64,000 nt of DNA, from NCBI GenBank assembly GCA_016928865.1, contig JAFGJX010000030.1, positions 62,835-126,834 of the forward strand, written 5' to 3'. Below are positions 24,001 to 36,000 of the stretch, in pieces. How positions within the stretch are numbered: the stretch's first letter is position 1; every line of letters starts with the position of its first letter. Made by a program: the position numbers. The stretch is from Spirochaetota bacterium. Its GTDB lineage: Bacteria; Spirochaetota; UBA4802; UBA5550.

Positions 24001-27000
24001 GAACCGCTCCGATTATTGATCGAGATGTGTATACATATTCCGGTTGCATAAATCATGCAGAATGCATAGAAACTCTAACGCTAAACCGTTAAAAATGCCG
24101 AAAATAGTATATATCGAAAGAAGTTTAAAAAACAACAATTGACATCCCGGGATTGATCTTTTATTATTACACATAGGGACCCAGTATGAGAAAGACTGCC
24201 GTATGTATGACCGTTTGCACCGCGCTTGTCTGCGCCGGATATGCCCTGTTGTTTTCTCAGGAGATGGTCAATGACCTCATGAACAACCAGGGAGTCAGGC
24301 TTGGCGAGCAGAACAGGCTGGACGAAGCGATCGAGCTGTTCGACAGGGCGATCGATTTCCGCGAGAAAGCGGCGGCGAAAGCGTACCACAACAAGGGATT
24401 CGCGCTCGAAAAAAAAGGCGAGCTGAAAGCGGCGATCAAGTACTACGAAGAGGCATGGAGGCGTAACCCGAAGCAGGTCCCGACCGGGGAGCGGCTCGGG
24501 TATGGCCTGTATAAAACCGAGGAGTACGACCGCGCCATAGAGGTGGGGGAGGCGGTCATGCGGCTCGATCCGCGCAACACGCAGGTCCCCATATGGCTTG
24601 CTGACGCCTATCGCAGGCGCGGCGGCAAGAAGGTATCTCCGGACAAGGGAGCGGCCGCTGAGGTAAAGCGCCATGTTTTTTATATGTCCATAGACGCCAT
24701 GGCGCGCATGGGCCTCTATTACGGGTCCAAGTCGCACTACGGCGGACTGTACCGCACGAACCTTCACGGGTTCCGGTATGTGCCGGACCCCGGATTGATC
24801 ACCAGCGTCCCCTATACCATTTTCATGAGCATCACGCCGATCCCACTGCTTCAAATCGATCTGACCGTGGAAAACCCGTGGCTGGGGGGCGTCACGCCTC
24901 CGGGGCTGGTGGTTCAGACTGAAAAGGGGGAGGTGCTCTTCCATATAAAGAACTTTACTCTCGGCGCCGGATTCATGGCAAACCATTATGATGACGGTGT
25001 CGCGTTTTACCGTCGGTACAAGCTCACTGACTACAAGGTCGGCTTCATCATCGGGTACCGGAAAGACGATGTTGAAGCGAAAATCACCTGGTACCCGCGA
25101 ATGCTCATCATGGATCCGCGTTCATCAACCGGGAAGACGCTCGATGTGGGCTCGCTTCGCATCGATTATTCATACCAGGCCTATCCCGATATCAAGATCT
25201 ACGGCATGTTCCACTTTCGCGATTATTACGTGTTCTGCCACTCGTTTGACTGGCGGGTCTTCTATGCGAGCTACTACCGGTATTCCGAGAACATCGCCAG
25301 CTACTGGGGCGTGTACGATATGGGCATAGGCCTCACCTTCAGCAACCTTGCACGCCATGAAGACGGGACCGAGCTGTTTTCGCTCAGCGTGGAATGGGTT
25401 GAGCGGTTTTACCTGCGGGACCTGAATAACGACGCTCCGTACACGCTTGCGCCGAACGGCCAGGGATGGTTCGGACTTAATCTCAAGAAATTCACCAAGG
25501 GGAAGCCCTTTTCCGGATTCTGGGCACTTTCCCAGGTCCTGAGCATCAGGTTCGACGAGCAGTTTACCAGAAACTTTTTCATGTACCAGAAGTTCATTGC
25601 GGAGCTGGCAGACCAGGATGCCGAACACCACGAGTTTAACCTCCAGCTCGGAATGGGATTCAAGATCTGAACCATGCACGCAGCAATCGCAGCTTTTGCG
25701 GAGGAAGTGTCGCGCGAGGCGGGGAAGATTCTCCTCCGCGGCTTCAGGTCGGACCGAACCGTGGTGTCATACAAAAGCCGCACGGATATCGTCACTGACT
25801 GCGATAAGGCTTCTGAAGCATTCCTTGTCGATGCCATCGCAAAACGCTTTCCCGATCACACCATAATCGCGGAAGAGGGGAGCCGGCGGGATGCTGCGGG
25901 TGACTATGTCTGGTACGTGGACCCGCTGGATGGCACCAACAACTTCGCGCACGGCCTGCCGTTTTTCTGCGTCTCGATCGGCGTTTTTTCCGTACGGCTA
26001 GAGCAAATAATAGCGGGCGTGGTGTACAACCCCATCCTGGAAGAGACGTTTACCGCGGTCCGCGGCGGCGGCGCATTCTGTAACAAAAAACCGATACGGG
26101 TCTCTTCGATCAAAGACATTGGCATTTCCCTTATCGCTACCGGATTTCCCTATGACAAGGACATTTCGGTAAACAATAACCTGAAGGAGTTCAACCGAAT
26201 CATCCTGCGCATCCAGGGGATCAGGCGAATGGGATCTGCGGCCATTGACCTGTCCTATGTCGCGAGCGGCAGGCTCGACGGATATTGGGAGGGAAAGCTC
26301 AATCCATGGGACATGGCAGCCGGGAGTCTGATTGTCGAAGAGGCTGGCGGAATGGTGACCAGATATAATGGAGGGCCATTCCACCCTGAGTATCCTGAAA
26401 TCGCTGCTTCTAATGGTTTAATTCATGCCCAATTGATACAATTGCTATCATAATAAAAGTATATTGTATACATTTTACTATCTTTTGTATAACAAATAAA
26501 ATTCTCTCCATTTTTACATTCGTAAAACCGAACATTATAATATATATCTTTGATGGCGCCATTGTTCCCGGCCAGCCATTGTCATTTTCAATAAATGCGT
26601 AGGGATTCCGGCAAGAAGATATACATTTGCAAGGCAAAATTTCCAGACCTGTTTTAAATGGTCCAGGCCAGGTCATTGATGAGCAATAAAAGGAAGCATA
26701 TCCGGGTCGCTTATGAAAAAAAGGTGAAGCTTTTCTCGGATGAGTACGCCTTTGAAGGTCAATCGATTGATATCAGCACCAGCGGGATCCAGGTCAGGAC
26801 CAGCGTTCCTTCACCTGAACTTGATGTAGAGCGGATTTCATTCACCCTCCCGTCCAATAATGATGCCATACATATCCCCTGTAAAATCGTCCGGAGCGAC
26901 AGAAGCGATCTGTCCGATGACGAGCAGGTACTGGGGCTTGAATTTGATTATCAGACGGAAGATGAAATGGCGCTCGTCGGCAATTTCATCAAAGACATGA

Positions 27001-33000: not shown

Positions 33001-36000
33001 AATTTTCTAACAGGTCAGTTGACAATTGCAACACCTCTGCCGGGGACCGACCTTTTGGGCAGATTGAAAAATGAAAATCGTTTATTGGTTAAAGAGCCTT
33101 TCTGGGATAAGTGCACCTTTTTTGATGTGCTTTATCAACCGAAAAAAATGACAGTTGATGAATTGGAAAATGGTTTTATATGGGCCTACGGGCAATTGTT
33201 CAATGAAGATTCTTTTAAAAAAAGGGCTGACTATTTGAAAGATATATATAAAGGAATTGATAAACAATCATGAAGTACGATCAAAAAACTATTGAAGCAG
33301 TTTTCAATGAAGAAATTTTACAGAATAGAATTCGTAGAGTGATAGTTACATCGCAAATAGCGATGATTGCTATTCCGTTTTTCTTAATCCTTGACTACTT
33401 CATGTATCCTGAATTTTTAACCACCCTCTTTCTTATAAGAGTTATTATTACAATACCATACATTTTAGTGATACTGTTAATCAAGAAATCAATTGTACTT
33501 CAAAAGTATATCCAAGAATTAAGTATGTTCCTGCTTTTCAACGCGGGTGTTGGGATAGCGTATATGATACATATCACGGAGGGATATGTATCACCATATT
33601 ATGCTGGTCTGGTTGTCGTTATTCTTGTCTCGTGTATTACAATGACATTAACAATAAAAAGGACGATTGTTGTCACATCATTAATTTATTTTTCATATAT
33701 TATTCCAATCTTGATCAAAGGTGATATCAGTGATGTTGCTATTTTCGTAAATAATAACTTCTTTTTGATTGCCATGGTAATCTTTGCGCTGTTTGGCGCG
33801 TATACACAGGAGTCTATACAGAATAATGAGTTTAGTGCAAGATATGAGATACAAAAATCAAATGAAGAATTACAAAATCTCACCGACGAGCTCGCTGAAA
33901 CCAACCAGAAGCTCCTCATCCATGACAAGCTGAAGACCGAGTTCTTCACCAACGTGAGCCATGAGCTCAGGACGCCACTGACCCTGATACTGGCGCCGCT
34001 CAAGCCAATTATTGAAGGACATTCCGGACCGCTGCCGCAGCCGGTCGTCGATACCCTGCAGACCATGCAGAACAACGGGCACCGGCTCCTGAAGCAGATA
34101 AACAACCTCCTCGATTTCGCCAAGCTGGAAGCGGGAAAAATGCGGCTCAATATCCAGGAAGTCGACCTGATCGCTTTCTGCAAGGACGTCATCGCAGCCA
34201 TGCAGCACGCCGCCACCAGCCGGGGCCTGAAGCTCTATTTCCAGTACCAGATGGAGGACGCGATCAAGGTGATGATCGATACGGAGCAGTTCGAAAAGGT
34301 GGTCATGAACCTGCTCCACAACGCAATAAAGTTCACGTCCCGGGGCGGGCGGATAACGCTCTTCCTCGACGAGCGCGAGGAGGATGTCGAGCTCGTCGTT
34401 CAGGATACCGGTGTCGGGATCCCGGATAACATGCTGGATACCATCTTCGACCGCTTCGCGCAGGTTGACGGCTCGTCCACGCGAAGCACGGAAGGGACCG
34501 GCCTGGGGCTGTCGCTGGCGAAAGAGATCGTGGAACTGCACGGGGGCACCATCCGCGCAGAAAGCAGGCAGGGCAGTGGGTCGCGTTTCATCGTGCGTGT
34601 CCAGAAGGGCGAGCGCCATATCGGGGAGGAGGTCCGCGAGCGGCGGAAGTCGGAGCAGCCGGTCCAGTACAAGAAGCGCGCCACTGACATGGAGGGGCTC
34701 AAGGTCAGCGATGTGGTCAACAACTACCGCGACATCCAGCTCATCGACCTGGAGCAGAAGCCCGAGGTCCAGACCAAGGAGCACCGGCGCGGCACCCACG
34801 AGTTCACCCTGCTCGTTATTGACGACAACCCGGACATCCTGAAGCTGATGCATTTTCTCCTTCATGACGAATTTGACATTCTGCTCGCCGGATCGGGGCG
34901 GGAAGGGCTCAGGACCGTGCGGGAAAAGAAGCCGGACCTGATCATAAGCGACGTGATGATGCCCGAGATGGACGGCTATACCTTTTGCCGCGAGATCAAG
35001 GCCGATCCCGAATTCAAGCATATACCGATTGTTCTGGTAACCGCGCGCGCTGGCTCGGAAATGCTGGTCGAGGGGATCGACTCTGGCGCCAATGACTACA
35101 TCGCCAAGCCATTCGATGTTGCAGAGCTCAAGGCGCGGGTGCGCTCCCTGTTGAGGACCAGGACGATGGAGGAGGCGCTTGCCCTGGCCAACCAGAACCT
35201 GAAGATACGGACCGAGGACCTGGTGGAGCGCCAGCGATCGCTCCTTCACTCAACGGTCAAGTCCCTGGTGTCGACCATCGAGGCAAAGGACAATTACACC
35301 AAGGACCACTCCCTCAGGGTGAGCAAGTATTCCCTGGCCATCGCGAGGAAGATGGGGTATGCCGAGCATGAGCTCAATGACCTCGAGCTGGCCGCGCTCC
35401 TTCACGATGTCGGCAAGATAGCTGTCCCGGAGGAGATCCTGCACTTCAAGGGCAAGCTCACCGACAGGGAATTCAACCATATCAAGAACCATCCCGCGAA
35501 CGGCGCTCAGATCATCCGTCCGATCACCGAGTTCAAGGGCGTCGCGTCGATTGTGCTCGCGCACCACGAGCATTACAACGGAGAGGGCTATCCCTTTTCG
35601 CTCTACAAGGACGACATCCCGCTCGGCGCGCGCGTCATGGCCGTCGCGGACGCGTACGACGCCATGACCTCGGAGCGTCCCTACCGCAGCGCGCTCTCCC
35701 ACAATTTCACCGTCAAGGAGATCGTGCGGTGCTCGGGCACGCAGTTCGATCCCAGCATCGTGGACGTGTTCCTGTCAATACAGGACACGTTCGGCGAGAT
35801 CAAGAACAACGGCCTGCAGGTGCAGGACATGAGCAATTGAGCGGGACCGGTCCCAATTTTTCATTGATTTATTGATCGCCCGGGATATAGTATGTCCCGA
35901 TCATGAATGATAATCCCACATCCACGAACGTCTATACCGTCTCGGACCTGACCCGCACCATCAAGCGCACCCTCGAAGGAAGGGCGGAATTCAACAACCT

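Follow-up and report, generated by a model that had tools for sequence, protein, structure and literature searches.

A predicted acyl-carrier pathway linked to a membrane kinase and cyclic di-GMP, with an exchangeable low-GC cassette, in a Spirochaetota bacterium

A stretch of 64,000 nucleotides from a Spirochaetota bacterium (assembly GCA_016928865.1, contig JAFGJX010000030.1, positions 62,835 to 126,834; in the following, the window) contains an operon of five open reading frames (ORFs), packed head-to-tail on the + strand at 26658-35840, in which the enzymes of a predicted acyl-carrier pathway are encoded together with a membrane sensor kinase and with domains of cyclic di-GMP (c-di-GMP) signaling. 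In gene order, the products are a protein uniting PilZ domains, an alpha/beta-hydrolase and an S-adenosylmethionine (SAM) methyltransferase, an acyl-AMP/acyl-carrier ligase, a dedicated acyl carrier protein (ACP), a radical SAM enzyme with a B12-binding domain, and a kinase with a MASE8 sensor, a receiver and an HD-GYP domain (Table 1). The operon is an undescribed combination of parts which all stem from known families. Its most informative feature, absent from an original prediction made on the same DNA, is a low-GC cassette reaching from the end of the ligase gene to the MASE8 domain. According to sequence comparisons, this cassette is swapped as non-homologous alleles between collinear relatives in several clades, and it ties the membrane sensor to the biosynthetic step. 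Tentatively, and with somewhat less than an even chance, the operon may be read as a load-tailor-release pathway making a small lipophilic ester which would be sensed by its own membrane kinase, with feedback through HD-GYP, c-di-GMP and PilZ.

ORF calling recovered all five genes with the tight spacing that had been predicted. Genes 1 and 2 are 35 nt apart, genes 2 and 3 overlap by 11 nt, genes 3 and 4 are separated by 4 nt, and genes 4 and 5 overlap at ATGA. The second junction becomes a 10-nt gap if the ACP begins at Met8 (nt 31665), as called in the relative L089. The assessment that the genes do not form a described pathway held as well. None of the five proteins attained the cutoff of an NCBIfam model, and the literature search returned no description of an operon combining PilZ, radical SAM, ACP, HD-GYP, thioesterase and histidine kinase. 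Likewise, PADLOC gave trivial domain-level matches only and no known defense system, and an Rfam scan at gathering thresholds of the entire window, including the 204-nt leader of the operon, gave no riboswitch or other RNA match.

Table 1. Coordinates of the operon, its sub-parts and control sites in the window, and of two sister operons in other loci
Feature	Coordinates	Strand	Description
Gene 1	26658..30221	+	1187 aa
PilZ1 (aa 10-111) and PilZ2 (aa ~125-233)	26685..27356	+	Pfam, motifs, model
YcgR-like unit: PilZN-like (aa 257-354) and PilZ3 (aa 355-455)	27426..28022	+	profile, fold, motif
LuxD-like alpha/beta-hydrolase domain (aa ~485-770)	28110..28967	+	predicted carrier off-loading
Class I SAM methyltransferase domain (aa ~800-1185)	29055..30212	+	Methyltransf_23/31/11; ~110-aa insertion
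Gene 2	30257..31654	+	ANL-family acyl-AMP/acyl-carrier ligase, 465 aa
Gene 3	31644..31925	+	dedicated acyl carrier protein, 93 aa
Gene 4	31930..33273	+	B12-binding-domain radical SAM enzyme (class B), 447 aa
Gene 5	33270..35840	+	MASE8 sensor-HisKA/HATPase-receiver-HD-GYP, 856 aa
MASE8	33270-33839	+	gene 5 sub-part
Kinase core	33933-34607	+	gene 5 sub-part
Receiver	34812-35144	+	gene 5 sub-part
HD-GYP	35268-35759	+	gene 5 sub-part
Low-GC exchangeable cassette	31440..33830	+	last ~65 ligase codons, ACP, radical SAM gene, MASE8 domain
Palindrome ATTGTATACATT	26463..26474	+	upstream of promoter; candidate operator
Sigma-70-like promoter	26513..26541	+	TTTACA, 17 nt, TATAAT; 11/12 match
Weak hairpin	35843..35861	+	GGGA-CCGG-UCCC then U5; 4-bp stem, 4-nt loop
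Bacteroidales sister operon	L003 7067-14313		ACP, ligase, alpha-oxoamine synthase, radical SAM, 7TMR-DISM hybrid kinase
Omnitrophica sister operon	L087 5910-13878		FadL-like channel, ACP, ligase, thioester reductase, radical SAM, HisKA_7TM kinase, receiver

An exchangeable low-GC cassette

The cassette begins and ends inside ORFs, near domain borders, with one breakpoint within the C-terminal subdomain of the ligase, ~65 codons before its end, and the other at the border between sensor and kinase. Its GC content amounts to ~0.30 versus ~0.56 in the remaining operon. At third codon positions, the GC content (GC3) is about 0.29 in the cassette, with values of 0.22-0.33 for its ACP, radical SAM and MASE8 parts, versus 0.74 (segments 0.68-0.83) in the remaining operon. 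Positions 31301-34000 form the only coding-scale low-GC block of the 64-kb window (GC 0.34 versus 0.53 overall), and in all 29 non-redundant loci the cassette lies below the rest of the operon in GC content (p 4e-9). The operon sequence is natural, since L001, a contig of another assembly, is 100% identical over 31001-36465 and L089, a 94% relative, is collinear with the window from 31302 onwards. L001 spans both cassette junctions, both reading frames stay open across them, and L089 exhibits the same GC drop as the window.

The exchange becomes visible in comparison with L088, which is syntenic with the window (suhB, the operon, xseAB). At the nucleotide level, no similarity was found between 31477 and 33563 except for a patch of 281 nt inside the radical SAM gene (32476-32756, 67% identity), and the flanks are 75-79% identical. 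At the protein level, identities of 67-87% for the flanking genes, the big protein of gene 1, the N-domain of the ligase, the kinase core, the receiver and HD-GYP contrast with 44-56% for the C-terminal segment of the ligase (aa 346-465), the ACP, the radical SAM enzyme and MASE8. The shift in identity occurs near aa 400 of the ligase and around aa 180-200 of the kinase. The cassettes most similar to that of the window belong to L093 and L094, two Desulfotignum-like loci of low GC content (radical SAM 66-67%, MASE8 61-64%, ACP 57-60%). In kinase core and HD-GYP, these loci share only 35-41% identity with the window. Sharp replacement between collinear flanks recurs in other clades (L106/L107, L103/L106, L094/L096). 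Over all collinear relatives compared, flanks of 75-92% nucleotide identity surround sharp gaps without similarity. In two further pairs, L011/L086 and L106/L122, the replaced stretch takes in the entire big gene. The pair L011/L086 (flanks 91-92%) carries different versions from the PilZ enzyme to MASE8 in differing gene order, and its kinase core and HD-GYP are 95-97% identical. The right breakpoint coincides with the MASE8/HisKA junction in 6/6 pairs compared, belonging to several clades.

Pairwise identities among 32 complete loci sort the operon into three modules. The big protein belongs with the ligase (r 0.81-0.93), the ACP, the radical SAM enzyme and MASE8 form a second module (r 0.66-0.79), and kinase core and HD-GYP make up the third (r 0.98). 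Matched types of radical SAM enzyme and MASE8 occur in 20 of 29 loci, which fall into five concordant type pairs. Thus, putative signal-producing genes and the sensor domain vary together next to a conserved kinase core, the pattern known from pherotype systems, with exceptions. A strict one-to-one co-evolution of radical SAM enzyme and MASE8 was considered and found to be only partly true because of these exceptions.

Enzymes of the predicted pathway

The gene 1 protein consists, according to Pfam, homologue alignment and structure models, of two PilZ domains, a PilZN-PilZ unit, a LuxD-like thioesterase/acyltransferase and a SAM methyltransferase, by which the postulated fusion of an alpha/beta-hydrolase with a methyltransferase was confirmed. 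Pfam matches comprise PilZ (73.8 bits) and Methyltransf_23/31/11, the latter above their cutoffs. The hydrolase is the best-conserved part of the protein (49-65% identity across phyla), and its triad S611, D711 and H740 is invariant in the homologue alignment. For the hydrolase model (pLDDT 78.8), LuxD, the myristoyl-ACP thioesterase of Vibrio harveyi, was the best solved structure by two methods. Pfam Acyl_transf_2 scored 16 bits and thus below its gathering score of 20.3, and some homologues are annotated with this family (PF02273). In the methyltransferase, the motif D845xGCGTG851 is invariant among homologues; comparisons with BioC, UbiE and ArsM gave trivial matches only.

Gene 2 matches AMP-binding with 173.6 bits, and the nearest solved relatives of its product are feruloyl-CoA and fatty-acyl-CoA synthetases, FadD13 and malonyl-CoA synthetase. 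The assignment to the adenylating enzymes is thereby supported. The proposed likeness to DltA/AasS is not, the enzyme being of a generic FadD/FadD13-like kind. The ligase adjoins an ACP gene in all three operon variants, i.e., in the window type and in the two sister operons described below. A Dlt system for D-alanylation was rejected as the ligase is FadD-type, DltC reaches 19.4 bits versus a cutoff of 68, and neither DltB nor DltD is present. Gene 3 was rightly seen as a dedicated carrier protein, with a PP-binding match of 46.7 bits and an intact phosphopantetheine site (DSL at Ser50). The true start of the ACP is probably Met8; the homologous gene in L089 was called as 86 aa.

For gene 4, both domains of the anticipated B12-radical SAM enzyme were found, B12-binding with 42.3 bits (cutoff 32.1) and Radical_SAM with 55.3 bits. 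The cluster motif CxxxCxxC is intact (GCPHDCEFC), and cobalamin dependence is predicted. The best curated family is HpnJ, with 116 bits versus a cutoff of 577.6, and scores far below the cutoffs place the enzyme outside the known class B subfamilies compared (HpnJ, BchE, PhpK, HpnR, QCMT, ladderane-type). The nearest solved relatives are 9CCB (E 4.5e-18) and AprD4; 9CCB is labelled QCMT in a review (PMC12931638). With QCMT (9CCB), TokK, CysS, HpnJ and BchE, the protein shares the N-terminal B12-binding domain and the CxxxCxxC core of class B radical SAM enzymes. The terms carrier protein, ACP, fatty acid and lipid are absent from that 2026 review of B12-radical SAM enzymes (PMC12931638).

A radical SAM homologue (44%) is encoded in a cluster with SAM synthetase, ketosynthases, an ACP, FabA, two radical SAM genes and a dehydratase. 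In Wukongibacter sp. M2B1 (L012 4028-14745), this type of cluster features four ketosynthase-like and two 2-hydroxyacyl-CoA-dehydratase-like genes and looks like an uncharacterized type II lipid or polyketide pathway. The context of ketosynthases, ACP and FabA is consistent with radical SAM action on ACP-bound chains.

Sensor kinase and c-di-GMP control

Three PilZ domains are predicted to bind c-di-GMP at the N-terminus of the gene 1 protein. PilZ1 scored 53.1 bits and PilZ2 23.1 bits, barely over the cutoff of 22.5; PilZ3 was undetected by Pfam PilZ alone and emerged through a profile match to PP4397 and through its fold. Each domain carries a motif pair, R12xxxR16 with D38xSxxG43 in PilZ1, R129xxxR133 with N155xSxxG160 in PilZ2, and R357xxxR361 with N388xS390xxG393 in PilZ3. 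The alignment of 27-28 homologues shows no variation at S40, G43, R129, R133, S157, G160, R357, R361, S390 and G393, and conservation is 90% or higher at R12, R16 and N155. D38 does not appear among the conserved positions listed and was taken from the sequence only; N388 was taken only from the sequence and the consensus of the alignment. With the family profile, aa 249-431 align to PP4397 (2gjg/3kyf) at E~0.01. The model of aa 1-470 (pLDDT 77.8) exhibits PilZ, PilZ and a YcgR-like PilZN-PilZ unit, built of beta-barrel and helix modules, with 3kyf/PP4397 (E 5.6e-10), MrkH, YcgR, VCA0042 and PlzA as top Foldseek matches. The label tri-PilZ, chosen beforehand, is right because the three conserved motif pairs and this model, which resembles known c-di-GMP receptors, agree.

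At the other end of the operon, gene 5 matches HisKA, HATPase_c, Response_reg and HD_5/HD in Pfam (HD_5 130 bits), and MASE8 was taken from precomputed annotation. About six hydrophobic segments are located at aa 23-183. The H-box FTNVSHELRTP, the receiver residues DD...D...K and the HD-GYP motifs HDVGK and HHEHYNGEGYP are intact. A membrane sensor kinase with HD-GYP output, as anticipated, is in line with these domains and catalytic motifs, the phosphodiesterase activity being predicted. The original prediction further assumed control of the pathway by c-di-GMP, and the conserved PilZ and HD-GYP motifs and their adjacency support such control. No description of a MASE8 ligand was found in the literature searched; the sole relevant paper naming MASE8 merely lists the domain.

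Distribution and sister operons

The PilZ-hydrolase-methyltransferase family comprises 494 clusters at 50% identity (E<=1e-30), as revealed by a profile search of 1.84 billion representative proteins. Shorter architectures occur among these clusters, including two-PilZ forms, with lengths of ~810-845 aa and ~1030-1080 aa. One of them is devoid of the first PilZ, as in Desulfotignum (1089 aa), and the ~830-aa form matches the profile at ~246-890 only. The five-part module was seen in Desulfotignum phosphitoxidans, in many Spirochaetota and other metagenome-assembled genomes (MAGs) and in 49 metagenome loci. The complete gene set is present in at least 36 loci from Spirochaetota, Desulfotignum and other lineages. 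Wherever the sequence extends far enough downstream, i.e., in 27/27 metagenome loci and at least 9 others, the genes for ligase, ACP and MASE8-kinase-HD-GYP come after that of the PilZ enzyme, the radical SAM gene usually lying between ACP and kinase. The HD-GYP part of the Desulfotignum operon is encoded separately, by a receiver-HD-GYP gene. The isoleucyl-tRNA synthetase (IleRS) of the window is 82-87% identical to proteins of Spirochaetota MAGs. In MAGs of this phylum (four contigs) with an IleRS 83-84% identical to that of the window, the PilZ enzyme reaches only 54-57%. Compared with housekeeping genes, the biosynthetic half of the operon thus appears to diverge or to be replaced much faster.

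Two sister operons (Table 1) were revealed through more distant radical SAM homologues. The alpha-oxoamine synthase of the Bacteroidales operon matches KBL/SPT/BioF (E 1e-30 to 1e-34) and CqsA (E 1e-12). The reductase of the Omnitrophica operon is a terminal thioester reductase of the type found in non-ribosomal peptide and polyketide synthases (MxaA, E 2.5e-30), and the FadL-like channel of this operon is of the outer-membrane type. The gene content of the sister operons points to ligase, ACP, radical SAM enzyme and polytopic membrane kinase as the constant core. The variable partner is in each case a carrier-protein off-loading enzyme, namely an alpha-oxoamine synthase or a thioester reductase in the sister operons and a LuxD-like thioesterase in the window type. 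A logic of loading, tailoring on the ACP and release had been proposed before. This framework gains support by comparison, since ligase, ACP and radical SAM enzyme recur together with an off-loading enzyme. Genes resembling dsr were observed in the neighborhood of the operon in L088; an affiliation of the organism with Desulfobacterota, to which they seemed to point, was rejected because IleRS places it in Spirochaetota.

Proposed mechanism and alternative explanations

All steps of the tentative mechanism are inferred from sequence. According to domains and gene neighborhoods, the ANL ligase would charge the dedicated ACP with a carboxylic acid (probably a fatty acid), and the B12-type radical SAM enzyme would alter the acyl chain on the ACP, the simplest guess being that it methylates an unactivated carbon. 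Subsequently, the LuxD-like domain would remove the acyl group from the ACP and the fused methyltransferase would methylate the released acyl group, with a neutral methyl ester as the simplest product. The fusion of thioesterase and methyltransferase suggests a free small ester and not a membrane-anchored lipid. The intact motifs indicate that the three PilZ domains could make the off-loading enzyme responsive to c-di-GMP, and that the MASE8 kinase may phosphorylate its own receiver and in this way control the fused HD-GYP domain, which would lower c-di-GMP. The cassette pattern, in which ACP, radical SAM enzyme and MASE8 are exchanged together while kinase core, receiver and HD-GYP stay, suggests that MASE8 most likely senses the product of the pathway. 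Synthesis, sensing and c-di-GMP feedback would then form a closed loop, of either positive or negative sign.

Several observations weigh against this mechanism. The radical SAM gene is located divergently upstream in L086, L114, L116, L135 and L136. In L121 and L132, which both possess the PilZ enzyme, the ligase, the ACP and the MASE8 kinase, no match to radical SAM was found in sequences that take in 10 kb upstream of the operon. The module thus does not strictly depend on the radical SAM enzyme, and in the latter two loci its step may be optional or encoded elsewhere. The sister variants feature neither PilZ nor HD-GYP, and the operon contains no exporter. LuxD-type enzymes can also pass acyl groups to acceptors other than water. 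Besides, radical SAM and MASE8 types are decoupled in L002 (radical SAM 65%, MASE8 34%) as well as in L022 and L095 (MASE8 55-57%, radical SAM 41-43%), and the co-transfer of adjacent genes could be simple linkage.

Among the competing explanations, remodeling of envelope lipids, in which the modified acyl group (e.g., mid-chain-methylated) would be passed to a membrane or outer-membrane lipid by a LuxD-like acyltransferase, is rather unlikely. In that case MASE8 would read the membrane state and tune the flux via c-di-GMP, and the alleles would reflect diversifying selection on a surface lipid, as in O-antigen loci. This would agree with the nature of LuxD-family enzymes as acyl transferases (Pfam Acyl_transf_2), with radical SAM homologues in lipid clusters resembling fatty acid synthases, with the weak similarity of the radical SAM enzyme to HpnJ, HpnR and the 'lipid biosynthesis B12/radical SAM' families, and with a sensor that is a polytopic membrane domain. 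Loci for surface structures, too, typically harbor allelic cassettes of low GC content between conserved flanks. Nevertheless, none of the at least 36 loci contains a lipid acyltransferase (PlsC, PlsY or MBOAT type), a flippase or a transporter, and all three types of release enzyme would yield free small molecules instead of lipid-anchored acyl chains. Moreover, the joint variation of a cytoplasmic ACP and radical SAM enzyme with the sensor would be left unexplained unless the sensor reads the product. For the envelope lipid or tail-coupled fatty acid named as possible products in the original prediction, nothing was found that points specifically to either.

An ordinary specialized-metabolite pathway with an unrelated regulator is rather improbable. 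Here, the kinase would sense an external cue, the c-di-GMP loop would serve as an on/off switch, and the cassette would result from horizontal transfer and recombination at the most conserved flanks, with no meaning for ligand and receptor. Regulators are commonly encoded beside biosynthetic genes, and the highly conserved kinase core is an obvious anchor for recombination; the decoupled types and the absent or displaced radical SAM genes also fit. This explanation is opposed by the position of the right breakpoint at the sensor/kinase border in all six collinear pairs from several clades, by the three non-homologous polytopic sensor kinases which accompany the same ligase-ACP-radical SAM core, and by the matching of radical SAM and MASE8 types in most loci.

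A BioC/BioH-like route has a very low probability. The methyltransferase would mask the free carboxylate of an ACP-bound dicarboxylate and the hydrolase would later remove the ester, resulting in a cofactor-like or dicarboxylic product. The weak BioC match (E 5e-4), with 19.9 bits, is far under the BioC cutoff of 184.95, and the label 'pimeloyl-ACP methyl ester carboxylesterase' given to some homologues by JGI is a generic COG name. One sister operon does encode a BioF-like alpha-oxoamine synthase, but no other biotin genes were found and BioH was not among the listed structural matches. Finally, there is hardly any probability that the low-GC block is an assembly chimera or a compositional shift due to amino-acid content, as the abrupt GC change inside two ORFs might suggest, both causes being refuted by the identity of L001 across the two junctions, the collinear L089 with its equal drop, the open frames, a fall of GC3 from ~0.7 to ~0.3 and the dip in 29/29 homologous operons.

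Within the preferred reading, that of a self-sensed ester, a more far-reaching proposal must be called doubtful. It assumes a non-peptide pherotype system of anaerobes (Spirochaetota, Desulfobacterota), in which the radical SAM enzyme would set the identity of an acyl-ester signal on the ACP and MASE8 would act as the matching receptor. Both would be traded as a low-GC cassette even across phyla, and the loop would be purely post-translational (kinase, HD-GYP, c-di-GMP and PilZ-gated synthase), with no transcription factor. If the self-sensed ester is real, a first function would be at hand for a large, unstudied family of ~500 clusters in anaerobic spirochaetes, sulfate reducers and others. 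Likewise, c-di-GMP would act directly on a carrier-protein off-loading enzyme and a cobalamin-type radical SAM enzyme would work on acyl-ACP. It would also be a hint that lipid-type signals can diversify into strain-specific 'dialects' like peptide pheromones. The cassette pattern offers a ready-made test of the ligand-receptor specificity of MASE8. Even if the product is a membrane lipid, the operon provides a clean natural example of recombination at domain boundaries inside genes.

Relation to known systems

The closest parallels in logic are found among fatty acid-derived signals. The Phc system of Ralstonia (phcBSR) likewise combines a SAM methyltransferase and a membrane histidine kinase in one operon. 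PhcB is the synthase of methyl 3-hydroxymyristate and PhcS the kinase that senses it (PMC8578825), and the signals of Phc systems are methyl 3-hydroxymyristate or -palmitate, with synthase and sensing kinase in one operon (PMC8578825, PMC13320629). The likeness is one of logic only, as Phc features no ligase, private ACP, radical SAM enzyme, thioesterase fusion, PilZ or HD-GYP, and its output is transcriptional (PhcA). The Rpf system of Xanthomonas (RpfB, RpfF, RpfC, RpfG) shares a FadD-type ligase in the cluster and a hybrid membrane kinase feeding a receiver-HD-GYP protein. Its diffusible signal factor (DSF) is a fatty acid made from acyl-ACP (PMC5941067). The membrane hybrid kinase of Rpf passes phosphate to a receiver-HD-GYP protein which lowers c-di-GMP, and RpfG-type proteins are activated by phosphorylation (10.1101/2021.11.05.467447). 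The Desulfotignum variant, with its separate receiver-HD-GYP gene, resembles Rpf in having a counterpart to RpfG. The operon of the window differs from Rpf by its MASE8 sensor, the fusion of HD-GYP to the kinase and of PilZ to a biosynthetic enzyme, and the radical SAM step; no crotonase-type RpfF/enoyl-CoA hydratase domain was found in the operon or in the neighboring genes examined. In the Bacteroidales sister operon, a polytopic hybrid kinase is encoded together with an alpha-oxoamine synthase. This follows the logic of CqsA/CqsS, the system of cholera autoinducer 1 (CAI-1), where a synthase which builds the signal from an acyl thioester and an amino acid neighbors its receptor kinase. Cqs, however, lacks ligase, ACP and radical SAM enzyme, the synthase of the sister operon is closer to KBL, SPT and BioF, and the variant of the window is not comparable.

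With regard to single parts, the hydrolase domain is only 14-17% identical to LuxD of Vibrio harveyi (PDB 1THT) and is fused here to PilZ and methyltransferase. The operon contains neither LuxC or LuxE partners nor a luciferase and thus does not represent a LuxCDE system. Direct control of enzymes by PilZ is known from the cellulose synthase BcsA, from Alg44 and from MapZ-CheR1, in which MapZ controls a methyltransferase, and structures of PilZ-gated enzymes appear among the fold matches of aa 1-470. The protein of the window differs in that three tandem PilZ domains are placed on a thioesterase-methyltransferase and that the target is a carrier pathway instead of a polysaccharide synthase or chemotaxis enzyme.

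The pattern of variation in the cassette has its counterpart in peptide signaling. In agr of Staphylococcus, the signal-modifying enzyme and the membrane domain of the receptor are variable, and the catalytic domain of the kinase and the regulator are conserved. A variable modifying enzyme and sensor domain next to a conserved kinase domain connect agr and comQXPA of Bacillus with the operon of the window. Both known systems use ribosomal peptides, whereas the variable unit here consists of ACP, radical SAM enzyme and MASE8, and specificity groups are inferred. For ComP, a variable membrane domain and a conserved cytoplasmic domain were reported (PMC4008528).

Control sites and further features of the window

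The sigma-70-like promoter, located as predicted, is the best promoter-like site within 26000-36500. The sequence block around it is conserved in L088 and, in part, in L091. Upstream of it, a 12-bp near-perfect palindrome, ATTGTATACA(A/T)T, is kept in three related genomes (window 26463-26474, L088 ~1195-1210, L091 ~4725-4740). In L088 and L091, the homologous operons are preceded by the form ATTGTATACAAT, with which the copy of the window agrees in 11/12 positions. The palindrome may be an operator for some regulator. In contrast to the promoter, the strong terminator proposed at 35842-35860 was not borne out. The hairpin at this site has a 4-bp stem of ~-5 kcal/mol and a z-score of 0.73, 158 of 200 shuffled sequences fold as well or better, and the terminator scan gave no call there, so that it is at most a weak intrinsic terminator.

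The operon is flanked by housekeeping genes, a suhB-like inositol monophosphatase gene upstream and xseA downstream, which begins at 35903 on the same strand. Elsewhere in the window, two ORFs of 1709 and 1622 aa (11531-16660 and 17344-22212) feature bacterial Ig-like domains (Big_5, Big_12) and probably encode surface proteins. Each of them is preceded by an AT-rich intergenic region of ~1 kb (10201-11200 and 16701-17600). The IleRS ORF (40699-43704, - strand, 1001 aa) starts with TTG and is ~80 codons longer than its 920-aa homologues; its true start probably lies downstream of this TTG.

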